33,238 nucleotides of DNA from the NCBI GenBank assembly GCA_018175035.1, contig GCA_018175035.1_4099.2. One strand, given 5' to 3'. A model generated the notes under the pieces. That model ran no database searches. It saw nothing but the letters and a program-made list of their open reading frames with translations, and was not told the DNA's origin. The position numbers were made by a program, and so were the translations under genes. This stretch comes from a phage. Shown here one piece after another: positions 6,618 through 28,428 of this stretch (its first letter is position 1; every line of letters begins with the position of its first letter).

Positions 6618-7756
6618 CCCTTTTACAAATATATGAAGATTTAATGCACTTATGTAATACAAACGATGCGTTTTTTTATGTGGATCATAAAAGTCCTGCT
6701 GGTGGTACGTATCGTGTATTCAGTTATCGTCTAGCATCATACACTGATTTCATGCAACCAAATGCGTTGGAAACCCGTGGCTCTATGTGGGAAATTGATG
6801 AAGAAGGTGACATGATACGTTGTGCAGCACGTACAATGAAAAAGTTCTTCAATGCTTACGAGAATCCTGCTACAATGTTCCCTGCTAACACCACATGCGA
6901 TGACATTGCGGTAGTGATGCCTAAGTTGGATGGTTCGATTATCAGTACTTATCGTGATAATGATGGTGAGATTCGTTGTAAATCACATACTGCATTGTAT
7001 TCTGACCATGCGATTAACAGTACTCGACTTATTAACGAGAACCAGAATTTGTACCAGTACATCGACGAAGCGGAACGTTTAGGTTACACAGTTAATATGG
7101 AGTATACAAGCCCAGAGTACCGAATTGTATTACCATATCAGGTAGAACAACTGTTTGTACTGAACGTTCGACATCGTGTGAGTGGTGAGTTGCTATGTGG
7201 TAAAGCACTACGTGATAAGTTTCCATGTCTTGCACAGTACAGTACTAATATGACTGGAAAAGATATTCATCACACTTTTCCGGTACGAAATACCTTCCGT
7301 GAAAGCGTGGAGGAAGTTCATAAAATGCTTGATATTGAGGGTTTTGTGTGCATCCTAAATAATGGGACAATGTGTAAAATAAAGACTGACTGGTACAGTT
7401 CATTACATCTTACAAAAGATAGTATTATTATTGATTCTCATTTATATGAAGCAGTATTAAATGGTTCAAGTGATGATTTAAAACAATTGTTCAGTACTGA
7501 TGAATATGCTATGCAAAAGATATTAAGAATGGAACAATTGGTATTTTCGTGCTATAATGCATTACAAGATGAAGTAGAAAGCTTCGTCAAGGAACACAAG
7601 CACTTGGAGCGAAAGGAATTCGCAATGAAGGTTCAGGAGTGTTTAACTAATGAACTGAATCGTCAGGGCTTGGCCTTTGCAATGTATAACAATAAGAAAG
7701 TTGATTACAAAGAGACTCTTATAAAATACATGAAAATTGTACTAAAGGATTTTTAG
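6614..7756 (+). CDS. rnlA: RNA ligase 1 (T4 Rnl1 / gp63 family)
   Basis: N-terminal region closely resembles T4 Rnl1 as I recall it (FFY..D...G.TYR.FSY..ASY.D...P.ALE.RG...E.D....R...R.M.KFFN..ENP.TM); KxDGS nucleotidyl-lysine motif (PKLDGS); ~380 aa. Confidence 0.9.
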   Translation: MTLLQIYEDLMHLCNTNDAFFYVDHKSPAGGTYRVFSYRLASYTDFMQPNALETRGSMWEIDEEGDMIRCAARTMKKFFNAYENPATMFPANTTCDDIAVVMPKLDGSIISTYRDNDGEIRCKSHTALYSDHAINSTRLINENQNLYQYIDEAERLGYTVNMEYTSPEYRIVLPYQVEQLFVLNVRHRVSGELLCGKALRDKFPCLAQYSTNMTGKDIHHTFPVRNTFRESVEEVHKMLDIEGFVCILNNGTMCKIKTDWYSSLHLTKDSIIIDSHLYEAVLNGSSDDLKQLFSTDEYAMQKILRMEQLVFSCYNALQDEVESFVKEHKHLERKEFAMKVQECLTNELNRQGLAFAMYNNKKVDYKETLIKYMKIVLKDF

Positions 7757-7786
7757 TACTATCTAGCCTAAGCACAAGGAGAAGTG

Positions 7787-8041
7787 ATGGCTAAACCTAA
7801 GTATAAAAATGACGGTTCCCTTTCTCCGACTGAGTTCAGGAAAATACAAGAAGAAATCGATGAATTACAGCACAAACGCTCAATGAAAGGTGTGAAGATA
7901 AGTAAGAAACGAATCGAGAATACCTTCGGATGTAGTAGTACTGAATACAAGAAGAAAAGGAAACCAAAAGGTGTTAAGCCGAGAATACATGATGTAACTC
8001 GCTATACATCGAAACGTGAAAATAAATTTGATCCACTATAA
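7787..8041 (+). CDS. Small highly basic (Lys/Arg-rich) protein, possible nucleic-acid binding
   Basis: ATG 5 nt after AAGGAG; track start 7784 is GTG. Confidence 0.55.
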   Translation: MAKPKYKNDGSLSPTEFRKIQEEIDELQHKRSMKGVKISKKRIENTFGCSSTEYKKKRKPKGVKPRIHDVTRYTSKRENKFDPL

Positions 8042-8050
8042 GGAGTTCAT

Positions 8051-8281
8051 ATGAAAGTTGAAGTTCAGCATAGTATTGTTCAGGATATGTCAGTAGTTAA
8101 ATTTCTTTCTCTGAAAGATTACTTCAGATGTATCAAGTTCCTAGAAGAATCTCAATTACAGTGGACCCCATTAAAGTACAGTTCATCCAATGATACTGCT
8201 AGTATTCGTTGTGATGAATCTGTACTTGTGAAAATCTCCAAGCGATTTGGAGTAGGAAAAGTTAATGAGCACAGTAAGTGA
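8051..8281 (+). CDS. Hypothetical small protein
   Basis: ATG with GGAG SD. Confidence 0.55.
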   Translation: MKVEVQHSIVQDMSVVKFLSLKDYFRCIKFLEESQLQWTPLKYSSSNDTASIRCDESVLVKISKRFGVGKVNEHSK

Positions 8282-8519
8282 CCTAAAATACTACAACAAA
8301 ACTGCGGATACGTTTATTACTCATTTATATGAAGAATTTAGTCGTATCCGTAAGGAATATACAGGTAAATGTATTTTATATAGTTCTTATCATAGTGGTG
8401 GAATTGAAAGTGCTTACATTACTAAAGTGAAGTTTTCTGATGACTATCAATTACTCTTTGAATTAGATGATTGTTTCGTTATTGAAGCTTGTTTGATAGT
8501 GGATGTTCTAGATAATTGA
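8265..8519 (+). CDS. Hypothetical small protein (paralog family B-like, YTGKCILY)
   Basis: ATG ORF overlapping upstream gene by 17 nt. Confidence 0.5.
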   Translation: MSTVSDLKYYNKTADTFITHLYEEFSRIRKEYTGKCILYSSYHSGGIESAYITKVKFSDDYQLLFELDDCFVIEACLIVDVLDN

Positions 8520-8525
8520 GGACAT

Positions 8526-8840
8526 ATGAATAAAGAACTTGTATTTGAGAGGATCGAAAAGTTAAAGTACATTGAAAAGGAACTAATAGAATCTGTCGAA
8601 TCAATGGTCGAAGATTACGTTTTCGATTTTAAGAAAACATTGATTGGATGTAAAGTTAAATGCTGGGATCATACAATCAGAGAATGGTTCAGTACTATAA
8701 TTCTTGATGTTAAAGTATCGCGTACTGCTATTGGTAATTTAGTAAATGGTGAATGCTTTGTATACACTGAATACAATAACGGAACAAGAAACCTTTCAAG
8801 AGGATGGCACAAACTCGAAGATGTAGAATTCATTGAGTAA
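8526..8840 (+). CDS. Hypothetical small protein (paralog family B-like, LIGCKVKCWD)
   Basis: ATG with GAGGA SD. Confidence 0.55.
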   Translation: MNKELVFERIEKLKYIEKELIESVESMVEDYVFDFKKTLIGCKVKCWDHTIREWFSTIILDVKVSRTAIGNLVNGECFVYTEYNNGTRNLSRGWHKLEDVEFIE

Positions 8841-8852
8841 CAAGGAGTAATA

Positions 8853-9785
8853 ATGCCAACTATTACACTAACAGTTGGATTACCTGGGTGTGGTAAAACC
8901 ACATGGGCAGTTCAAGAAATTAAAAATGCCAAATCCAAGACTATCAACATCAACCGTGATGATATTCGTGAATCTATGGCTGGGTCACATGATGCTTACA
9001 AATTCAACGATGCTAATGAGCAGTACGTAACTAATTTACAGTTCAGTGCAGCAAATTCAGCAGCAGAGAATGGTTGGAACATCATCATATCCGATACAAA
9101 CCTTAAACAACATTTCCGTAATCTCTGGAAAGTATGGGCTAAAGATAATGGTTATGATTACAAAGAAAAGAACTTCTATGATGATTTTGTACCTAATGAA
9201 GACCGTGGTGCAGATGTTCATGAATTCTTTAAGATTAAAGAGTTCGTAAAACTTTGTAAGAAATATAACCTCCAGCGTGAGCGTTCAGTACAAGATGATA
9301 TCATTGACACAATGGCAGATACGTACTATTATAGTAAGGCATTACACATTGGTTACTATGGTAATTCACGCGAAGCTGCTATCATCGTTGATATCGATGG
9401 AACTCTTGCTCATAAATGGGGTCGTAATCCTTACGATGAAAGTACTGTTCTTCAGGATACACCTGATGAAGAAGTTATTTTGTCTATTATCGCTGAAGCA
9501 GTTTTTCATAAACGCAAGATTATCGTCATGAGTGGGCGTACTGAAGGGTGTCGTGCTGATACCGAACAGTGGCTTAAGAATTGGGGTGTTCCTTACGATG
9601 CATTGTTTATGCGAGATATCGATGATAAACGTCCTGATGATGTTGTAAAATTCGACCTGTACATGAAAAATGTGGTTGATCATTACGATGTTAAAAAGGT
9701 ATATGATGACCGCGATCAAGTTGTATTCATGTGGCGTAAGCTACTTGGGTTGAAAGTTTTCCAAGTGGCTGAAGGAAATTTCTAA
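8853..9785 (+). CDS. pseT: Polynucleotide 5'-kinase / 3'-phosphatase (T4 PseT/Pnk family)
   Basis: AAGGAG SD; N-terminal P-loop GLPGCGKTT with NINRDD; C-terminal HAD phosphatase motif DIDGTL; C-terminus ...DDRDQVVFMWRKLLGLKVFQVAEGNF resembles T4 Pnk as I recall it. Confidence 0.9.
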   Translation: MPTITLTVGLPGCGKTTWAVQEIKNAKSKTININRDDIRESMAGSHDAYKFNDANEQYVTNLQFSAANSAAENGWNIIISDTNLKQHFRNLWKVWAKDNGYDYKEKNFYDDFVPNEDRGADVHEFFKIKEFVKLCKKYNLQRERSVQDDIIDTMADTYYYSKALHIGYYGNSREAAIIVDIDGTLAHKWGRNPYDESTVLQDTPDEEVILSIIAEAVFHKRKIIVMSGRTEGCRADTEQWLKNWGVPYDALFMRDIDDKRPDDVVKFDLYMKNVVDHYDVKKVYDDRDQVVFMWRKLLGLKVFQVAEGNF

Positions 9786-9789
9786 TACA

Positions 9790-9820
9790 AAAGGGATCAT
9801 ATATTGGTCCCTTTTTCTTT
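9790..9820 (+). terminator. Rho-independent terminator
   Basis: Stem AAAGGGATC / GGTCCCTTT (9 bp incl. one G-U), 7-nt loop, then T-rich tail. Confidence 0.55.
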
Positions 9821-9852
9821 TAAGGTACATTATAGTGAATGTAACAACACAG

Positions 9853-10011
9853 ATGTTATTACAAAAAGACTACTTAGAAAATATAGAACGATACTATAGA
9901 TTGTCTTTGTATGAAAATAAGCATAAAAATTATAGTTTTGATAAACTACTAAATTCCAGTACTGATGATTATCTATTTTCATCAATGTTTTATGTGAGAG
10001 GTTTATTATAA
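9853..10011 (+). CDS. Possible small ORF (52 aa); not in ORF track
   Basis: ATG 9853, stop TAA overlapping next ATG (TAATG); no clear SD. Confidence 0.3.
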   Translation: MLLQKDYLENIERYYRLSLYENKHKNYSFDKLLNSSTDDYLFSSMFYVRGLL

Positions 10012-16083: not shown

Positions 16084-17502
16084 ATGAGCATTTTAGCAAT
16101 TCTTGAAAGCATTAAAAATACTAGCAGTACACTAGGCAAAAAAGCTATTCTTGAACAAAATAAAGATAATGTAACTTTACAAAAAGTACTGAAATATACA
16201 CTAGACCCTTCTATCGTTAGTGGCTATAAGAAGCTCCCTGCCGCTGATGACGTATATCAACATATGACGTTAGATGAAGCAATTGATAAGCTAGAATGCA
16301 TTTACAAGCGTGATGTGACAGGAAATGCGGGGCGTGATTTCATTGCTTCAGTACTGGGTTCAGTATCAGAAGATGATCAAGAAGTTCTCCGTAAAATGCT
16401 TACTAAAAACCTTGATTGTGGTATTCAAGAAAAGAACTGCAATGATGTATTTGGTAAAGGCTTTATTAAAGACGAACCATATATGCGTTGTTCTTTGATT
16501 GACAAAAAGACTGCAAAGAACATCAACTTCAAAGATTATGGTTACGCTATATCAGAAGTGAAAATGGATGGTCAGTACTTGAACCACGTTGTCATTAATG
16601 GTTCATTAACTTCTACATCCCGTAATGGTAAACTATACGACTTCCTGGGTTGTCGTGATGGTGAGATGGCAGGTCTTGCTCACATCATCCAAAGTAAAGA
16701 TGAACGTTTTAGTAGTGGTGTAGTCTTTATGGGTGAAGGTGTAGTACTGGACAATGATGGAGAAACCATTCTCCCACGCACTACTGGCAATGGTATAATT
16801 CAGAAAGCTGGAAAAGATAGTATCAGTCAGAATGAAGCAATGCGTACTGTATTTGTTCTATGGGATGTTGTTCCATATGATGCATTTTGTGAAGGTGTAT
16901 GGGATGTAAAACGTAAAGAACGTCGCGAGATCTTAGTAGATGCAATTAACGAACTCAGTAGTGATTTTGTTCGTATGGTTGGATTCCGTAAAGTTCTAAA
17001 CATCAAAGAAGCATTTGAGTACAATAGTGAACTAATGAGCGTAGGTGAAGAGGGTTCAGTACTGAAATGTGAAGATGGTATCTGGAAATCTCACACTTCT
17101 CCTAAGCAATTGAAAATGAAACTCAAAATGCAACTGGACTTGCGTATTGTTGGTTTCAATGAAGGTGAAGGTAAGCGTAAAGGTAGCCTTGGTTCTTTAC
17201 AACTGGAAAGTGCTTGTGGTACATTGAAAGTTAATGTAGGTACTGGAATTAAAGAGAAAGACGCAGAATGGACGTTTAAAACCATTTGGGAAAGAATGCA
17301 AGAACTCATCGGTCAAGTAGTAACAGTAGAGTGCAATGATATTGTATTCGATAAGCGTACTGGTGAGCCATCACTGTTCTTACCAGTGTTTATTGAATTT
17401 AGATTTGACAAAAACACTTGTGATGATTATACTCGTATCTTAGAAATTCGTGAGAGTGCAGTTGAAGTGTTCTCAAACAGTATTATTGACGCATTAGGTT
17501 AA
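16084..17502 (+). CDS. ATP-dependent DNA ligase (T4 gp30-like)
   Basis: N-terminus ...STLGKKAILEQNKDN resembles the T4 ligase N-terminus as I recall it; adenylation motif I KxDG (VKMDGQ); ~470 aa; AAAGGA SD. Confidence 0.9.
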   Translation: MSILAILESIKNTSSTLGKKAILEQNKDNVTLQKVLKYTLDPSIVSGYKKLPAADDVYQHMTLDEAIDKLECIYKRDVTGNAGRDFIASVLGSVSEDDQEVLRKMLTKNLDCGIQEKNCNDVFGKGFIKDEPYMRCSLIDKKTAKNINFKDYGYAISEVKMDGQYLNHVVINGSLTSTSRNGKLYDFLGCRDGEMAGLAHIIQSKDERFSSGVVFMGEGVVLDNDGETILPRTTGNGIIQKAGKDSISQNEAMRTVFVLWDVVPYDAFCEGVWDVKRKERREILVDAINELSSDFVRMVGFRKVLNIKEAFEYNSELMSVGEEGSVLKCEDGIWKSHTSPKQLKMKLKMQLDLRIVGFNEGEGKRKGSLGSLQLESACGTLKVNVGTGIKEKDAEWTFKTIWERMQELIGQVVTVECNDIVFDKRTGEPSLFLPVFIEFRFDKNTCDDYTRILEIRESAVEVFSNSIIDALG

Positions 17503-17521
17503 CCATTTATTGGAGGTAATT

Positions 17522-18313
17522 ATGAAATTTGTTGTAACATCTGATGTACACGGTGGGACTGATTACCTCCATAGTGGTGATTACAGTGATACAGTACTGA
17601 TTATTGCTGGGGACTTCGATGAAGTTAAACGCAGTCGTTACCGTACTGGTATCGAATCACTATGTAAGCAGTTTAAGAATGTAGTACTGGTTCCTGGCAA
17701 TCATGAATATTATGGTTCCAATATCCACAAAACGCATAAAGTACTGTCCGATATACAAGATGAGATTCCAAATTTCATCTTTTTGCAAAACAAATTTGTA
17801 TGGCTGGATGGAGTACTGCTTGTTGGTAGTACTCTGTGGACAGACTTCGATAAAGGTAATTCTTTGACGAAGTTTGATGCTCGTCAGAAGATGAACGATT
17901 ACAAACATATCCGTCATGGAACAACATCAGAGCCTTGGCGTAAGAAACTGACACCAGATGATACTGAGTTTATGCATCACAAAGATAAACAATTTATCAA
18001 AAATTCTATTGACACAGTTCGCTTTATGCATGATAATGATTTCAAGGTCATCGTGGTTACCCATCACGCACCAAGTTATCAAAGTATTTCACCAAAATAT
18101 AAAAATGATTCACTGAATGGTTGTTACTGTTCCGATATGGATCAGTACATTGAAGATTTGGGTGCTGATGTTTGGATTCATGGTCATGTTCATAGTAGCT
18201 TTGACTACCACATTGGTAAGACACGTATCATTTGTAATCCACGAGGCTATGAATCATACAGTGGAGCTTGTGAGAATTTTGATTACAATCCTAAATTTGT
18301 ATTTGAAATTTAA
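17522..18313 (+). CDS. Calcineurin-like metallophosphoesterase
   Basis: Motifs SDVHGG, AGDFDE, PGNHEYY, GHVH; ATG 17522 after GGAGGT (track start 17510 is TTG). Confidence 0.75.
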   Translation: MKFVVTSDVHGGTDYLHSGDYSDTVLIIAGDFDEVKRSRYRTGIESLCKQFKNVVLVPGNHEYYGSNIHKTHKVLSDIQDEIPNFIFLQNKFVWLDGVLLVGSTLWTDFDKGNSLTKFDARQKMNDYKHIRHGTTSEPWRKKLTPDDTEFMHHKDKQFIKNSIDTVRFMHDNDFKVIVVTHHAPSYQSISPKYKNDSLNGCYCSDMDQYIEDLGADVWIHGHVHSSFDYHIGKTRIICNPRGYESYSGACENFDYNPKFVFEI

Positions 18314-19179: not shown

Positions 19180-19875
19180 ATGGTTGAACAATTCATGTTT
19201 GGTGGTTATGCTAATGGCGAAGTACGTAACATTTCTATTCCTTACGTAGTTGAGAAAGTTAATGGTTCAGAACGTACATATGATCTAGCATCTCGTATGA
19301 TGCAAGACCGTATCATTTTCCTTGATACTGATTTCAATGATCAAATGGCACATATCATCAAACAACAATTGGTATGGTTAGACTCACAAGGTGATTCCCC
19401 TATTACATTCTACATTAGTTCACCGGGTGGTTCAGTACACGCAGGTTTGGGTATTGCAGATGTTGCTAAGTCTTGTATTTCCCCAATTCGCACTGTAGTT
19501 ATGGGTTATGCAGCATCAATGGGTTGCTATACACAATCTGTTATTGGGACTAAAGGTTTCCGTTTAGGTGGTAAACGCTCATACTTCATGTGTCACCAAG
19601 TAAGTTCTGGTACACAAGGTCTAATTACTGACCAGAAGATTTCACTTAAACATTCTGATGCCCTAAACACTCTATTGACTAAAGAAATTGCAGAAGCAGT
19701 TGGTGTATCACACGAACAACTACTGAAAGATGCGGATCGTGACCTGTGGTTGAACGCTGAAGAAGCACTCGAATACGGTGAACATGGTTTCATTGATGGT
19801 ATCATCCTCGGACCACGCAACGAAGAAGGTAAGTATCTCGTCAAACGTCGCGGTGGCGTTGAAGAGTGGGTCTAA
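19180..19875 (+). CDS. clpP: ClpP-family serine protease proteolytic subunit
   Basis: Strong ClpP pattern: YSRMMQDRIIFL, SSPGGSV.AG, catalytic Ser in GYAASMG, His in MCHQ, Asp in DRDLW, C-terminal EALEYG. Confidence 0.85.
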   Translation: MVEQFMFGGYANGEVRNISIPYVVEKVNGSERTYDLASRMMQDRIIFLDTDFNDQMAHIIKQQLVWLDSQGDSPITFYISSPGGSVHAGLGIADVAKSCISPIRTVVMGYAASMGCYTQSVIGTKGFRLGGKRSYFMCHQVSSGTQGLITDQKISLKHSDALNTLLTKEIAEAVGVSHEQLLKDADRDLWLNAEEALEYGEHGFIDGIILGPRNEEGKYLVKRRGGVEEWV

Positions 19876-21834: not shown

Positions 21835-22270
21835 GGAAAGTAAATGTATTTCACAAAAAGTTGGTTGTGTTATTGTTAAAAATAACCGAGTATTGAGTAC
21901 TGGATACAATGGTACTCCATCAAAACAACCAAATTGCTGTGATGTGAATCAACACTTAGTCAATGATGGGCGTTTTCAAGACTGGGTTAGTGATGAAGCA
22001 AAGCATGAACATCATGAGTGGAGTAATATTCATGAAATCCATGCTGAAATGAACGCTTTACTCTATAGTTCTCCTACTGAACGTCAAGGTGCTACTCTTT
22101 ACACAACACTACAACCATGTTATACTTGTTCTAAGTTGATCGCAGGTAGTGGGATTTCACGTGTAATTTATCACAAAAGTTATCCACGAACACCACCTGA
22201 AGCGATTAAAGTACTGGAAGATGCTGGGATTATTGTTAACTGCATTTATGACAAGGGTATGAATCAATGA
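21791..22270 (+). CDS. cd: Deoxycytidylate (dCMP) deaminase
   Basis: Zinc-deaminase motifs HAEMNAL and PCYTCSKLI; N-terminus ...ESKC.S.KVGCVIVKNNRVLSTGYNG resembles T4 Cd as I recall it; ATG after GGAG SD (track start 21779 is TTG). Confidence 0.85.
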   Translation: MKHTTWLKIAEVVAEESKCISQKVGCVIVKNNRVLSTGYNGTPSKQPNCCDVNQHLVNDGRFQDWVSDEAKHEHHEWSNIHEIHAEMNALLYSSPTERQGATLYTTLQPCYTCSKLIAGSGISRVIYHKSYPRTPPEAIKVLEDAGIIVNCIYDKGMNQ

Positions 22271-22521
22271 CATTTATGATTGTTGGATTTCTATCAATAT
22301 TAGTATTATTTTTTATAACAGTAATGTTTGTTATTGATGATAATGACATTTCTCAACGAAACTATGAAGTGCGTTTTTCTGCACAAAATAATAAGTACTA
22401 TATTGTAAACTGTATACACCGTAGTGAGAAAAGGGTAACAAGTAGATTTGGATTTACCATTTATTATAAAGACCGAGTAGAAGCTGACATGATTTGTCAG
22501 AAGCTTAATACTGTAGAATAA
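22267..22521 (+). CDS. Small membrane-anchored protein
   Basis: ATGA overlap with cd; hydrophobic N-terminus. Confidence 0.5.
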   Translation: MTFMIVGFLSILVLFFITVMFVIDDNDISQRNYEVRFSAQNNKYYIVNCIHRSEKRVTSRFGFTIYYKDRVEADMICQKLNTVE

Positions 22522-22550
22522 AAAAAAGGAGCCACAAGGCTCCTTTTTTG
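22520..22550. terminator. Bidirectional Rho-independent terminator between convergent genes
   Basis: A-run, stem AGGAGCC / GGCTCCT, loop ACAA, T-run; symmetric so functional on either strand. Confidence 0.65.
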
Positions 22551-22928
22551 TTAACCAGGGATGTTACAATAATACAAATCCCAAGGGTGATATTTCATTT
22601 CTCCAGTACTCAATTTAATTTTATGAAACTGGAATGATTCGGCAAATGCACTATCATCAATCTTAATACAAAAAGTATTTTTTGCTAAAGTTGGTGCAAT
22701 CTCTAGTGCAGTTTTAGATGCATCTAATCTGATTTTATCTTTATCAAAACTTGTTATAGTTACAAAACGATAAACATTAAAATCAGTGTCGATAAGATCG
22801 TAAACACAACTAGAACGTTGATTAAAGATGTTCAAGTTATATTTCAATTCACCGTTTATATTAGCGGCGGTTACACAAAAGCCGCCGATATTGAATGGTA
22901 ATTTACCTTGTGCTGCTATAGCTTTCAT
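22551..22928 (-). CDS. Hypothetical protein (125 aa); the only convincing minus-strand gene
   Basis: ATG preceded on the minus strand by AGAGGA at 8 nt; stop abuts the bidirectional terminator; competing + strand ORFs here lack SD. Confidence 0.55.
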   Translation of the reverse strand: MKAIAAQGKLPFNIGGFCVTAANINGELKYNLNIFNQRSSCVYDLIDTDFNVYRFVTITSFDKDKIRLDASKTALEIAPTLAKNTFCIKIDDSAFAESFQFHKIKLSTGEMKYHPWDLYYCNIPG

Positions 22929-23237: not shown

Positions 23238-23846
23238 ATGAAAAGACTATGGCTTGAGGTAGTACAAGCAGTAATGCTTCTGATGTTGATAAATTTTCCA
23301 GCCAGTGCTGGTATTGAAAGTAAAAATGTGATAAAGTACAATCCTGAAACACGTAATGTATATTTCATCTCAGATATTACGGATGGGTCACTAAAGCGTA
23401 TGATGGAGTTGTATGATAAAGAACACTATGATACCATTACCATCACATCGCCAGGTGGTGATTTTGATGCTGGGATTAAAATGGCAAACTTCGTTAGAGA
23501 CAATGGTATAAATTTAATTGTTTCTAGGTATTGCAACTCAGCATGTACTGTGGTATTCTTCAGTGTAGCTTTTGAAAAGCGATACATGATAAATCGCTCA
23601 GTACTGGGTCTTCATAACATTTCGATTAAAAGTAATGTTACTGATGGTGATAATTCATTTGTGTCTGTAAGACAGCTATCAACTTTTACCGAAGAAATGG
23701 CAACAAAGGTAGGTTTCCTTTTTTCACTATATGCAGCAAATGGAATCCCACCAGAAGTTCTATTTAGAGTTAGTCGTTCTCGTGGTGAAGATGTTGTAAT
23801 ATTAACAAAACCAGAACTGGTTTTTTACGGTTCAGTCAAACAATAA
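23238..23846 (+). CDS. Secreted (signal-peptide) ClpP/S49-like serine peptidase-fold protein
   Basis: N-terminal hydrophobic signal (LLMLINFPASAG); ClpP-like SPGGDFDAG, then CNSAC and GLHN in ClpP Ser/His positions; AAGGA SD. Confidence 0.55.
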   Translation: MKRLWLEVVQAVMLLMLINFPASAGIESKNVIKYNPETRNVYFISDITDGSLKRMMELYDKEHYDTITITSPGGDFDAGIKMANFVRDNGINLIVSRYCNSACTVVFFSVAFEKRYMINRSVLGLHNISIKSNVTDGDNSFVSVRQLSTFTEEMATKVGFLFSLYAANGIPPEVLFRVSRSRGEDVVILTKPELVFYGSVKQ

Positions 23847-23916: not shown

Positions 23917-24177
23917 ATGACAAACATCCAAAACTTGACATCTATTATTTTTTATGCTACTGTAGTAATGTATGCTACAGTTATTTTTCTAACAGTTTTC
24001 ATTTACAAAGATTATCGTAATGGCTTTATTGATCCAACTACAATGAAGTTCAATTCAAAATTCGAAGCAATAATTTATTATGTACTATCAACTTCATACT
24101 TGGTGTGCCTAATGTTGTTAGGAGCACTAATTTATATCTTATACACAACATTATTTGCAATTGGAGCTATTTTATGA
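23917..24177 (+). CDS. Small integral membrane protein (two TM helices)
   Basis: ATG ORF; hydrophobic segments. Confidence 0.5.
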   Translation: MTNIQNLTSIIFYATVVMYATVIFLTVFIYKDYRNGFIDPTTMKFNSKFEAIIYYVLSTSYLVCLMLLGALIYILYTTLFAIGAIL

Positions 24178-24767
24178 CCTGTATTATTGCACACACTGAC
24201 GGAGTAAGTTCTTTTATTGCTGGGGATAAGTTAGGAAGCAATGGATTTACAAAAACTGTTCAAACTGAGCCAAAGGTATTCGAGAAAGAATTTATCAAGT
24301 TACATGATGATGGACTAACTAGAACTAAAGAAGTAATGGCATTGGGTTATACTACATCATTTCGTATGGGTCAGTTGTTAAATTATAACCTTAATTTACC
24401 TGAACAAGATGCTAGTCAAACATTTTCACAATATTTGGTTCTTAAAGTTATTCCAATCATTCGTCAAATGTTTAAAGAAGAATGGGGTGCACGAGATGCA
24501 TCACAAGATGTAGGTGGTGGACAATTTATCATTCTCCACAATCATACAATCTATGAAGTTCAAGAAGACTTTTCAGTACTACAACCTAAAACAAGAATTA
24601 CCGCAGTAGGTAGTGGGACATATCATGCAATTGCAGCAATGCAAGCATATATTGAAGTTGAGAACGAATCTAAAAAACCACTACACGAACGTATCAAATC
24701 AATTTTTAAAATTGTTAGTGATAATGTAACAAGCGTAAGCGAAGAGTTTGATGTTTTAAAATATTAA
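24174..24767 (+). CDS. HslV/proteasome beta-subunit-like N-terminal-nucleophile hydrolase
   Basis: ATG 24174 (ATGA overlap, GGAG SD); N-terminus MTCIIAHTDG...IAGD parallels HslV MTTIVSV...IAGD with Thr at position 2; C-terminal AVGSGTYHAIAA parallels HslV AIGSGG.YA.AAA. Confidence 0.7.
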   Translation: MTCIIAHTDGVSSFIAGDKLGSNGFTKTVQTEPKVFEKEFIKLHDDGLTRTKEVMALGYTTSFRMGQLLNYNLNLPEQDASQTFSQYLVLKVIPIIRQMFKEEWGARDASQDVGGGQFIILHNHTIYEVQEDFSVLQPKTRITAVGSGTYHAIAAMQAYIEVENESKKPLHERIKSIFKIVSDNVTSVSEEFDVLKY

Positions 24768-24989: not shown

Positions 24990-24998
24990 GGATTGAAT

Positions 24999-25751
24999 AT
25001 GATATCAGAAAAATTTATAAGCAATGAAGGTAAAAAGCGATTACTGATTATATCAGGTGCAGGACTTTCTGTTGAAAGTGGTATGGAACCTTTTCGATTT
25101 GATGATGGTTTGTGGGATACATTTAAAATTAATGATGTATGTAACATTGCTAGTTTAACTACGAAATATCACGTTGTTCATTCCTTCTATAATACATTAC
25201 GTGTAAAATTGGGACAATGCGAACCCAATGCAATGCATTATTTTATAAAATCGTTAGAAGATCAATATGGTGATTGCTTCCTTCATATGACTTCTAACAT
25301 GGACGATCTTTATACTCGTATTGGTGGTCATGAGCTTAAACTTCATGGAAACTTGTGCGAAGTTATTGAAAATTATAGTATCAATTCCGATGATTATAAT
25401 GTTATTAACTGCGGATACGAACCATACATACCAAAACATGATGTTTTTGCTAAACCAAATGTAGTAATGATTGGAGAATATCATCGTTATGTTGATGGTA
25501 TTCGCTTACCAATTTACGAAGAACGAAATAATGTGTTGAAATCTCTTAATGAAAATGATACAGTTATTGTAATTGGTAGTAGCGATACAGTACTGGTATG
25601 GTCGAGATTAGCAGCAGCATTACCATGTTATAGTGTTAATGTTAACATTCGTAAAAATGATAATGATTTTTTGTTTAATGAAAAAGTTATCAAGCCAGCA
25701 ACCAAAGCAATACCGCATCTAGAGACTATAATTAAGGAACGTATGAAATGA
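24999..25751 (+). CDS. Sir2 (sirtuin) family protein, NAD-dependent deacylase / ADP-ribosyltransferase fold
   Basis: Sir2 motifs GAGLSVESGMEPFR (GAGxS...SGxPxFR), TSNMDDL (T/QNxDxL), LHGN, VVMIGE, VIVIGSS; no obvious 4-Cys zinc ribbon; ATG after AAGGA (track start 24993 is TTG). Confidence 0.75.
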   Translation: MISEKFISNEGKKRLLIISGAGLSVESGMEPFRFDDGLWDTFKINDVCNIASLTTKYHVVHSFYNTLRVKLGQCEPNAMHYFIKSLEDQYGDCFLHMTSNMDDLYTRIGGHELKLHGNLCEVIENYSINSDDYNVINCGYEPYIPKHDVFAKPNVVMIGEYHRYVDGIRLPIYEERNNVLKSLNENDTVIVIGSSDTVLVWSRLAAALPCYSVNVNIRKNDNDFLFNEKVIKPATKAIPHLETIIKERMK

Positions 25752-26299
25752 GTGTTAAAGAAGTTCCCTTTGGTGAATATGGCACACGTGCAAATTTTGT
25801 ATTTTGTTATTTCTTTGCAAGAAAATGCAACCCTTACAAAAACTATGAGTTGAATGATATACCAGAAGTAAATTTAGTATTACTGCAATTACGATGGGAT
25901 GGTCTTCTTGGTGGATGTGGTGGAACCGTAGAAAGTACTGATATCTCACTAGAAGATGCGTTGCGTCGTGAAGTTCAAGAAGAAATGGATTACAATATTT
26001 TTGTTTCCCATCTTCGACCACTCAAAACTTTTGAAATTTACCCAGGTGCAAACAGTCACAGTTTTAGCTATGAAGTAACCTATGACGAGTTGAAACACAT
26101 TAGAGATGGATACACTAATGCTAAACATGCAAGTGCAGAAGTTGCTGGTGTAAATTTATGTCATATTTCTCGTTATTCTAAGGGACAAAATCGAGAAGCG
26201 GGATATAATAATCTTATGACACAGAACTTCATCGGTACAGCAAAACAAGAATTGGAGTATCTGGTTCAAAAAGAAAACTTACTAATTAGTTATCTATAG
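25748..26299 (+). CDS. Putative Nudix-fold hydrolase (divergent Nudix box)
   Basis: ATGA overlap with Sir2 gene; GGCGGTVE...LRREVQEEMDY resembles Nudix box Gx5Ex7REUxEExGU with a 4-residue insertion and D in place of the last G. Confidence 0.45.
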   Translation: MSVKEVPFGEYGTRANFVFCYFFARKCNPYKNYELNDIPEVNLVLLQLRWDGLLGGCGGTVESTDISLEDALRREVQEEMDYNIFVSHLRPLKTFEIYPGANSHSFSYEVTYDELKHIRDGYTNAKHASAEVAGVNLCHISRYSKGQNREAGYNNLMTQNFIGTAKQELEYLVQKENLLISYL

Positions 26300-26308
26300 G
26301 AGTTTAAC

Positions 26309-26629
26309 ATGTCTTACTCAATGTTTTTGGATGATATTCGTGATGCAAATCTATATTATCCAAACCAAGATATGGTGGTATGTCGTGACTTTAAAAGTGC
26401 ATGTGAATATGTTATTGAAAATGGAATTCCAGCATTTGTATCATTCGACCATGACTTGGGTGATGTGAGCGAAGACGAAAAGACTGGATATTCTTTTGCT
26501 AAGTTTCTTATTGATTATATGTTTGATAATAATATTAAAGAACCGTTTGAGTACTTTGTTCACAGTAGTAATCCTGTTGGTAAAATTAATATTGAAACAT
26601 ACTTAAACAATGGATTTAACTCATTATGA
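26309..26629 (+). CDS. Receiver-like domain protein resembling the cyclic-phosphate-processing receiver (CPR) family (tentative)
   Basis: Pattern FLDDIR...SFDHDLG...TGY...HSSNPVG matches my recollection of this family; AGGAG SD 8 nt upstream. Confidence 0.45.
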   Translation: MSYSMFLDDIRDANLYYPNQDMVVCRDFKSACEYVIENGIPAFVSFDHDLGDVSEDEKTGYSFAKFLIDYMFDNNIKEPFEYFVHSSNPVGKINIETYLNNGFNSL

Positions 26630-26928
26630 TTCAAACACACATCAAAAGTCTTATTTGTACTGTTCTGTTAGGTGCAGGAGTTCTTTGGTTCGGACAGTAT
26701 CACGAGAACACTAAGCGTACCAACATTCACTACAATACCGCAGAAGTTGTTAGTTTAGGACAATGTAGCGAGTCCAAATGTTCATTTATGTATAAAACCC
26801 AAAGTGGTGAAGTACGTAATGGACTATCAAGAGAACCAGTTTCAATTGGTCAACTTGTTTACCAGGAGTGCTGGGAAGAAAAGGTTCGAGGTTCACGTTG
26901 CTATGTTGAATACGAACCAAATATGTAA
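26626..26928 (+). CDS. Membrane-anchored / exported Cys-containing small protein
   Basis: ATGA overlap; N-terminal hydrophobic helix; four Cys. Confidence 0.5.
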   Translation: MIQTHIKSLICTVLLGAGVLWFGQYHENTKRTNIHYNTAEVVSLGQCSESKCSFMYKTQSGEVRNGLSREPVSIGQLVYQECWEEKVRGSRCYVEYEPNM

Positions 26929-26952
26929 TAATCCGAGTCAATAACATTAGTC

Positions 26953-26985
26953 GAGTACAAGGATGTACTCATAACTCAAGGATGT
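26953..26985 (+). promoter_or_regulatory. Hairpin plus 9-bp direct repeat CAAGGATGT overlapping the PhoH ribosome-binding site
   Basis: Stem GAGTACA / TGTACTC with loop AGGA (26953-26970); CAAGGATGT at 26958-26966 and 26977-26985, second copy carries the SD. Confidence 0.3.
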
Positions 26986-26988
26986 TTT

Positions 26989-28428
26989 ATGAAAAAATAT
27001 ACAATTGACACAAACGTACTACTATCTGACCCTAATGCATCTATTGCTTTTGATGGTGCTGCAATCATTCTACCATTTACAGTACTGGAAGAATTGGATT
27101 CAATTAAGAGTCGTAATGTAGATGTTTCACGCGATGCTCGTGTTGCTATTCGTAACATTGAAGCAATTATTGCAGATGCATCACATGATGAGATTAGTAG
27201 TACTGGTGTTAATATTGCTGATGTTCATACCAATATGAATCCTGATAGCAAATTGTTTGTTATTACAAACGAAGAAGCTGAAGCACTAATTCGTACTAAA
27301 GGTTCAGAAGAGAAAGTTCAAACCCTTCTCAAAAGCACAGTACCTGATGATAAAATCATTCTGGTAGCTTTAGCAACAGAATCAGTACTGGTAACTCGTG
27401 ATATCAACATGCGTATCAAAGCACTAAGTTATGGTGTCGAGGTACAAGATTATCGCCATGATATTGTTATTGGTGATAGTGATTTGATTCACATTGGTCA
27501 ACACCATTTGGAAATTAATTTTTGGGAAGTATATAGCAACTTATCCAATACTAATATTCAATCCGAACAAGTTGGTCGTCGTTTGTATCATTACATTTCT
27601 AAAAGCTTGATTGAACATTTGCTTCCACAAAATCTATGCATCGGTGATTATCTATATGATGATGCAGACGTATTATTTGTGTACGAAGGTCAATCAGCAA
27701 TTGAGGAAGATGATGGAACACTAACACCAGAAGATATTTTGGTATTCCAAGATATTGGACAATCAGTAGCTTTACGTGCTAAAGTATGGGATATTAAAGC
27801 AAAGAATATCCAACAAGCACTCGCCATCAACAGTATTCTCGATCCTGATGTACATCTAACAGTACTGCTAGGTTCTGCTGGTACTGGTAAAACACTAATT
27901 ACGATTGCTACTGCATTAGAATTAGTACTGGAAAAACGTAAATACGACCGAATCATCTTCTCTAAAACTCAAGACTCACAGTTTGAAGATATTGGTTTCT
28001 TGCCAGGTTCAGAAGCAGAAAAAGTGATTCCATTCTGTGGAGCCGCAATTGACGCGTTAGAGTTTCTTCATAAAGATGATGCTAACCCACAAGGTAGTAT
28101 TGAAGAGATTATGAAACGTAATGTTATTCAATTTAAAGCACTAAACTTTGTACGTGGACGTTCATTCACCAACACTATTCTAGTAGTTGATGAATTCCAA
28201 AACATTACACCTGCACAAGCCAAAACAATCTTGACACGAGCAGGATTAAACTGTAAAGTAGTAATTATGGGTAACTTGAGTCAGATTGACAGTAAGTTTA
28301 TTAGTCCTGTTAACAGTGGTTTGACATATGTAACTGAGAAGTTTAAAGATTGGGCAGGTTGTCGTGTCATCGAACTAGAAGGTGTTGTTCGTTCACCACT
28401 TGCAGAATTTGCTGAAGAAAATATGTAA
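26989..28428 (+). CDS. phoH: PIN-domain PhoH-like ATPase (PhoH2/YlaK-type)
   Basis: N-terminal PIN-like region (YTIDTNVLLSDP...LEELD); Walker A GSAGTGKT, Walker B VVDEFQN; 479 aa. Confidence 0.85.
   Translation: MKKYTIDTNVLLSDPNASIAFDGAAIILPFTVLEELDSIKSRNVDVSRDARVAIRNIEAIIADASHDEISSTGVNIADVHTNMNPDSKLFVITNEEAEALIRTKGSEEKVQTLLKSTVPDDKIILVALATESVLVTRDINMRIKALSYGVEVQDYRHDIVIGDSDLIHIGQHHLEINFWEVYSNLSNTNIQSEQVGRRLYHYISKSLIEHLLPQNLCIGDYLYDDADVLFVYEGQSAIEEDDGTLTPEDILVFQDIGQSVALRAKVWDIKAKNIQQALAINSILDPDVHLTVLLGSAGTGKTLITIATALELVLEKRKYDRIIFSKTQDSQFEDIGFLPGSEAEKVIPFCGAAIDALEFLHKDDANPQGSIEEIMKRNVIQFKALNFVRGRSFTNTILVVDEFQNITPAQAKTILTRAGLNCKVVIMGNLSQIDSKFISPVNSGLTYVTEKFKDWAGCRVIELEGVVRSPLAEFAEENM

Follow-up and report, generated by a model that had tools for sequence, protein, structure and literature searches.

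A predicted proteasome-like threonine peptidase without a linked unfoldase gene in an Asteriusvirus-type jumbo coliphage

Proteasome homologues have been catalogued by Fuchs, Alva and Lupas, who described 22 new ones (Fuchs et al., 2021; PMC8665760). Among the group I families of this catalogue, the following are phage-borne and have no known unfoldases: (i) PPH, of ∼140 residues and lacking helix H2; (ii) AAH, found in alpha-proteobacteria, Actinobacteria and many phages (240 nr90 sequences; reference WP_035979212); and (iii) CPH. In the same work, BPH is reported from bacteria only and its long pore loop is linked to unfoldase independence, and connectase is described as a monomeric, highly specific ligase of the proteasome-like superfamily (PMC8665760). 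HslV by itself is nearly inactive before HslU binds to it; in the enzymes of E. coli and H. influenzae, the pocket for the C-terminal tail of HslU is formed by F54, F57 and Q114 (PMC6429459). That HslU is missing beside phage 'HslV' genes has already been noted in work on a Salmonella jumbo phage (PMC7823757). Literature searches on phage proteasome homologues returned no experimental study of any member of the family described below.

The DNA analysed here, hereafter the window, is a phage stretch of 33,238 nucleotides (assembly GCA_018175035.1, contig GCA_018175035.1_4099.2). It is ∼98% identical to Asteriusvirus-type jumbo coliphages with genomes of 350-380 kb, namely PBECO4, 121Q, phAPEC6, G17, UB and E9.1, and its locus is matched by 39 records of phages of this type, 30 of them from Escherichia. 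Since the window belongs to an Asteriusvirus-type jumbo phage, the comparison with T4 drawn in the original prediction is beside the point. The gene of interest is a 197-aa open reading frame on the plus strand (24174-24767; ATG at 24174, TAA at 24765-24767) for a predicted proteasome-like Ntn threonine peptidase of group I, HslV/BPH-like, whose N-terminus reads MTCIIAHTDGVSSFIAGD, just as that prediction had described it. A Shine-Dalgarno-like GGAG can be read from the sequence 7 nt 5' of the ATG (24163-24166, plus strand), and a scan for sigma-70 promoters gave a signal no higher than the shuffled background. The peptidase ATG (24174-24176) shares the tetranucleotide ATGA with the TGA (24175-24177) of an upstream 86-aa open reading frame with two predicted membrane segments (23917-24177, plus strand; an ORF call, given as context), an overlap that suggests translational coupling; the two genes are, thus, possibly coupled. 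A longer, 220-aa version from the GTG at 24105 is rejected because MTC is the exact N-terminus in 204 of the 217 collected relatives.

Genes of this kind are not new, contrary to what the original prediction had implied. The orthologue in RefSeq PBECO4 (NC_027364; 98.5% amino-acid identity) is annotated as 'peptidase HslV family', a label also given to those of E9.1, JP4 and others and which is a homology-based name; besides, phage homologues without HslU have been published (PMC8665760; PMC7823757). The gene kind is, in other words, already recognised in public annotation, and its class has been described bioinformatically (Fuchs et al., 2021). As a genome-scan finding, the peptidase gene adds little.

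The protein matches the profile PHROG 1040 ('peptidase HslV family') over residues 1-196 at E 4e-24 (86.7 bits). A Pfam search with the single window protein gave no match to PF00227 (Proteasome) and only a weak one, at E 0.088, to the N-domain of connectase; for some homologues, the PF00227 score is 17.6-19.8 bits, versus a gathering cut-off of 22.4. The single-sequence search of the PDB returned nothing significant (recoverin noise, and HslV at E ∼1). Because single-sequence searches of Pfam and the PDB are nearly blind in this case, a family profile was needed, and an alignment of 39 family sequences with identities down to 26% (alignment A1) was used as such. Against the PDB, this profile retrieved HslV chains at full length (E 7e-8), followed by 20S beta subunits and by BPH (PDB 5OVS, 5OVT and 5OVU), the similarity to the latter being weak (E 0.003-0.004), and hhalign with E. 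coli HslV gave a probability of 95.7% and an E of 8.9e-9. The resemblance between the peptidase and HslV is, hence, far above chance.

In any case, only part of the label 'HslV/proteasome-like peptidase' stands: the fold and the active site are those of an Ntn threonine hydrolase, but the protein is not an HslV orthologue. The latter is ruled out by the score against the NCBIfam HslV equivalog NF003964 (19.9 bits versus a cut-off of 137), together with the missing Pfam Proteasome match; the score against TIGR03692 is 18.9 versus 157.75, and identity between the phage peptidase and HslV is ∼16-22%. With E. coli HslV as the tblastn query, the phage collection yielded host-contaminant contigs only. 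The canonical HslV and HslU of that collection trace to host-contaminant contigs or to chimallin-type jumbo phages of Erwinia and Salmonella with HslU-like genes, and not to the Asteriusvirus group.

With a limit of E<=1e-3, the family around the peptidase comprises 8,447 clusters of 50% identity, and with E<=1e-30 it comprises 2,256; almost every match aligns from residue 1. Within the jumbo-phage clade, orthologues are 56-100% identical and 192-201 aa long. The family is a separate, very large and mostly phage-borne branch. Longer homologues (n=14) carry C-terminal extensions with acidic linkers and a short end motif, which the window peptidase does not have; a Pfam search of the extensions in these 14 found no domain. 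In P0053, P0081, P0082, P0094, P0097, P0100, P0115 and P0118, the extensions are of 75-210 residues, their linkers are strongly acidic, and several end in a short conserved motif (for instance, ...KYPHNIGIEKLREKILKHL) that is possibly a SAP/HeH-like element. PADLOC models matched neither the window peptidase nor the Azospirillum homologue and gave no link to a defence system.

The active site is that of the proteasome superfamily. Residues M1, T2, C3, D18, K34, G146 and G148 are invariant among the 39 sequences of A1. On alignment with HslV, the following elements are retained: (i) Thr2 (codon 24177-24179, plus strand), the predicted N-terminal nucleophile, that becomes Thr1 after Met removal and falls on HslV Thr1, as originally proposed; (ii) Asp18 (24225-24227, plus), the counterpart of Asp17 in the catalytic triad of the proteasome and HslV; (iii) Lys34 (24273-24275, plus), equivalent to the catalytic Lys33; (iv) Gly58, aligned to the oxyanion-hole Gly45 of HslV; and (v) Gly146-Ser147-Gly148 (24609-24617, plus), which aligns with the GSGG of HslV and the G-S-G loop of proteasome beta subunits, position 147 being mostly Ser. 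Gly58 opens the most conserved block of the family, GYTTSFRMGQ (residues 58-67; 24345-24374, plus), where conservation reaches 90% or more at G58, T60, S62, F63, R64 and Q67. The match to the HslV GSGG segment had been recognised from the sequence, although AVGSGTYHAIAA had been taken for the end of the protein: this motif spans residues 144-155, and 42 more residues follow (two helices and a strand).

Methionine aminopeptidase, by its specificity, removes Met from Met-Thr proteins and so exposes a Thr nucleophile. E. coli HslV shares the Met-Thr start (MTTIV...) and the exposure of Thr by Met removal; after it, residue 2 is Cys in the phage peptidase and Thr in HslV. The phage peptidase has no propeptide. 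The relatives that do not start with MTC begin with MT[A/L/V/I/T] or are apparent start miscalls, from which it follows that Thr is universal and Cys3 replaceable. Cys3 as the nucleophile was accordingly rejected, given that a few members have A, L, V, I or T in its place and that Thr2 never varies; Cys3 is a signature of the family without being essential.

The AlphaFold2 single-chain model (pLDDT 92.6, pTM 0.88) shows the alpha-beta-beta-alpha sandwich of proteasome subunits, which places the protein in the Ntn hydrolase superfamily (MEROPS T1-type). Foldseek with this model found HslV at E 2.6e-10, and the best TM-scores (0.73-0.78) correspond to BPH, so that structural closeness to BPH is at least equal to that to HslV; the likeness is greater for beta subunits than for alpha ones. 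The model contains four helices, H1-H4, and no C-terminal H5. Helix H2 occupies residues 84-104 (pLDDT >90) and is followed by a 14-residue loop, of lower model confidence, which exceeds in length the very short loop at the HslV pore. Between S3 and S4, an insertion of ∼20 residues (residues 37-56; 24282-24341, plus strand), seen as a gap in A1, is modelled as a long beta-hairpin with strands E35-43 and E50-59 (pLDDT ∼95). It is shared by the Asteriusvirus-type clade (P0012-P0047) and a single distant homologue (P0065), the rest of A1 having a gap there.

Compared with the described families, the peptidase belongs most probably in AAH and not in CPH, as matched on length, helix content and taxonomic distribution alone. 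It shares with AAH (i) a compact subunit of ∼180-200 aa with H1-H4, no propeptide and no H5; (ii) a position closest to BPH and HslV; and (iii) an occurrence in many phages and alpha-proteobacterial chromosomes (Azospirillum) with no linked unfoldase. It differs in that the family found here is ∼10 times as large as the 240 nr90 sequences reported for AAH, that no Actinobacteria are present among the best 80 of its 390 genome hits, and that the Asteriusvirus-type clade adds the 20-residue S3/S4 hairpin. Membership in PPH is excluded by the length of 197 aa and the confidently modelled H2. From HslV, the phage peptidase differs in its longer pore loop, in a 4-residue deletion before H1, and in having no hslU adjacent or elsewhere in the window; from BPH, it differs in its range, BPH being bacterial only (Fuchs et al., 2021; PMC8665760) and the present family phage-rich.

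Family members are present in 198 phage records, including jumbo coliphages and T5-like Epseptimavirus, as well as in Vibrio, Aeromonas, Pseudoalteromonas and Xanthomonas phages and Geobacillus virus E3. Cellular homologues were found in the Azospirillum group, Firmicutes, Myxococcota, CPR/Patescibacteria and Dehalococcoidia. The 38 genome loci of the Azospirillum group, mostly from Azospirillum species, form one 70%-identity cluster, in which the copy is fixed among housekeeping genes, between cysS/gltX/DJ-1-PfpI and nadE (locus L157, 5965-6570). In Polyangiaceae (locus L109, 6001-6558), the start of the homologue overlaps the preceding acyltransferase gene, and the gene faces two adjoining Hsp20 genes. 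The chromosomal copies in housekeeping contexts indicate, therefore, that the family is also at home in cells, outside prophages; no ATPase is linked to the copies of Patescibacteria, Dehalococcoidia, Myxococcota or Azospirillum. Some viruses have more than one copy: Aeromonas phage 2L372D has a second homologue directly downstream (gp211; locus L004, 6570-7454), of 294 aa and with a Pfam Proteasome score of 24.8 bits, and a 324-kb viral contig (locus L051, 6001-9765) carries three proteasome-like paralogues. Such tandem paralogues, two or three per phage, hint at hetero-oligomeric particles.

As stated in the original prediction, there is no AAA+ unfoldase gene in the window: tblastn with E. 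coli HslU, ClpX and Lon (first 704 residues) gave nothing below E 0.5, and in phage E9.1 (98% identical) the region corresponding to the whole window is annotated with no HslU/ClpX/Lon-like gene; the sole P-loop ATPase in the window is a PIN-PhoH protein. Escherichia phage records matching HslU and ClpX number 4 and 15, respectively, versus 30 Escherichia records of Asteriusvirus type (39 in total), so that, on these record counts, the group as a whole lacks HslU and ClpX. For the family at large, the open reading frames within 4 kb of a homologue were clustered (165 loci, dereplicated to 75 groups). No conserved partner gene emerged: no neighbour family exceeds 8 of the 75 contexts, without any ATPase among them. 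What recurs beside the homologues is ordinary for phages: genes for portal, DNA methyltransferase, capsid and RNR, for GIY-YIG and HNH homing endonucleases, and for terminase. The small membrane open reading frames that flank the peptidase gene were discarded as partners, as they recur upstream in 5 and downstream in 3 of the 75 contexts versus a background of 8%.

The neighbourhood of the peptidase gene is metabolic and of early/middle type. On the plus strand, an exported ClpP-related protein, a small membrane ORF, the peptidase, a second small membrane ORF, Sir2, a Nudt16-like Nudix, cREC and PIN-PhoH follow one another, with dCMP deaminase upstream of the peptidase block and NrdD/G downstream; in EPS7 and Geobacillus E3, the homologue comes after thymidylate synthase and DHFR. 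Of the 62 proteins that mass spectrometry identified in phAPEC6 virions, none is the orthologue, gp345c, although its neighbours gp347 and gp341c are included (PMC7247149).

Several other genes of the window deserve mention. At 19180-19875 (plus strand), there is a genuine ClpP homologue, 36% identical to its E. coli counterpart across 191 aa, with a Pfam CLP_protease match at E 3.3e-41 and the Ser-His-Asp triad motifs AASMG, HQ and RD; related phages label it 'head maturation protease', despite a separate T4-type prohead protease (phAPEC6 gp227c), and no ClpX- or ClpA-like gene is found within the window. The exported ClpP-related protein (23238-23846, plus; 202 aa), which lies 330 bp upstream of the peptidase gene, has an N-terminal signal/membrane segment and is weakly ClpP-like, with matches in Pfam (E 0.0074) and to an NCBIfam ClpP subfamily (E 3.3e-5) that all stay under the cut-offs. 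Three peptidase-type genes (19180-19875, 23238-23846 and 24174-24767) are, thus, gathered within 5.6 kb. The contiguous block at 24993-28428 (plus) encodes Sir2 (E 3.7e-20), a Nudt16-like Nudix (E 8e-19), a cREC_REC 'cyclic-phosphate processing receiver' domain (E 1.5e-22), PIN-PhoH (E 7e-44) and a 100-aa ORF termed 'membrane protein' in E9.1 for which the Pfam search was empty. This block looks like a cluster for NAD/ADP-ribose or RNA-end processing, possibly in counter-defence; its PhoH-like product has its orthologue in gp341c, the protein present in phAPEC6 virions. Further upstream, RNA ligase 1 and polynucleotide kinase, a tRNA repair pair of T4 type (∼6700-9870, plus; via E9.1 CDS0194/CDS0199), and an ATP-dependent DNA ligase (∼16170-17590) are encoded. 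Finally, a strong 12-bp GC-containing hairpin with A-run and T-run flanks (22522-22549), located between the convergent genes 22267-22521 (plus) and 22551-22928 (minus), is probably a bidirectional intrinsic terminator; the product of the minus-strand gene is the virion protein known as gp347 in phAPEC6.

The favoured reading, which stands just on the probable side, is that of a Thr-nucleophile peptidase of group I, between HslV and BPH, acting independently of an unfoldase. We infer the following course for its catalysis, its oligomeric state, its substrates and its independence from the HslU of the host. The peptidase would be transcribed with the early/middle metabolic genes and synthesised without a propeptide; the host methionine aminopeptidase would remove Met1, leaving Thr as residue 1; and the free amino group and hydroxyl of this Thr would hydrolyse peptide bonds jointly with Asp17 and Lys33, the oxyanion Gly and the G-S-G loop. 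It would have no dedicated unfoldase, probably form a homo-oligomeric ring particle like BPH or HslV, and act on peptides, on unfolded proteins or on some specific protein set within the cytoplasm of the infected cell rather than inside the virion. Unfoldase independence has circumstantial support: in phages as in bacteria, the gene has no ATPase linked to it, and the loop after H2 is long beside that of HslV. An intact active site is no proof of stand-alone activity, since HslV without HslU is itself nearly inactive (PMC6429459).

An unlikely course, in keeping with HslV being the closest relative at the sequence level, is that the peptidase, as hexameric rings, takes the place of HslV by docking on E. 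coli HslU (or on a different host AAA+ protein), and so redirects or blocks ATP-dependent degradation during infection. Many carrier phages infect hosts that possess HslU, such as E. coli, Salmonella, Vibrio and Aeromonas. Moreover, the phage also encodes a genuine ClpP without ClpX and, therefore, borrowing host unfoldases would be a consistent theme. The pocket for the HslU tail gives a divided answer: according to hhalign, with an uncertainty of 1-2 residues, two of its three residues are kept (F54 as F63, Q114 as Q137) but F57 is lost (Gly66), and Q137 is Glu in most family members. Docking on HslU is also opposed by (i) the 4-residue deletion ahead of H1; (ii) the hairpin of the Asteriusvirus clade (and P0065), near the apical face or the active site; and (iii) the residence of the family in Azospirillum, and also in Patescibacteria, Dehalococcoidia and Myxococcota genomes, with no ATPase linked.

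It is likewise improbable that the protein is a specific processing enzyme, that is, a monomeric or small-oligomer Ntn hydrolase or a connectase-like transpeptidase that acts, by cleavage or ligation, on a single defined target, be it a protein of host or phage or a peptide-like molecule (for instance, a host defence or stress factor). The superfamily does include a monomeric ligase, connectase, and the S3/S4 insertion of the Asteriusvirus clade lies at the site of the connectase signature insertion or specificity lid (PMC8665760); most family members, however, lack this insertion. The weak Pfam match to the connectase N-domain (E 0.088), the Sir2, Nudt16-like Nudix and cREC neighbours, typical of host-conflict neighbourhoods, and the frequent accessory-gene positions in small phage genomes speak for such an enzyme.

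Several small viral contigs carry the homologue a few kb from portal, terminase or major capsid genes, as a morphogenetic (prohead) protease for capsid maturation might be. Such a role is very improbable: in the window the gene lies in a metabolic block, structural genes are not conserved neighbours (a maximum of 8/75 contexts), chromosomal copies have housekeeping contexts, and in phAPEC6 virions gp345c went undetected while gp227c, a different protein named 'prohead core scaffold and protease', was detected (PMC7247149). Least probable of all is an inactive relic or non-enzymatic structural protein, a notion that the sub-threshold Pfam matches might suggest but that is opposed by the invariance of the catalytic positions and the Met-Thr start (A1, 217 relatives, thousands of clusters) and by jumbo-phage orthologues that keep a length of 192-201 aa at 56-100% identity, with all catalytic residues in the A1 representatives.

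Beyond the single gene, and with low probability, ClpP, the exported ClpP-related protein and the Thr peptidase could make up a proteolysis toolkit of the phage's own without a phage-encoded unfoldase, whose Thr peptidase particle, with its S3/S4 hairpin in this clade, either captures host unfoldases such as HslU or is a self-sufficient mini-proteasome; in the latter variant, it may bring about the early removal of specific host proteins (defence, stress or shut-off targets). Either variant, if true, would give these thousands of phage proteasome homologues their first functional assignment. As for the unfoldase-independent Thr peptidase favoured here, its enzymology, if solved, would provide a function for a phage-borne branch of the proteasome superfamily that ranks among the largest uncharacterised ones and extends over >2,200 clusters at E<=1e-30 and over jumbo, T5-like, Vibrio, Aeromonas and Bacillus-group phages, and would reveal whether proteasome-type peptidases act unfoldase-free or parasitise the AAA+ partners of the host.
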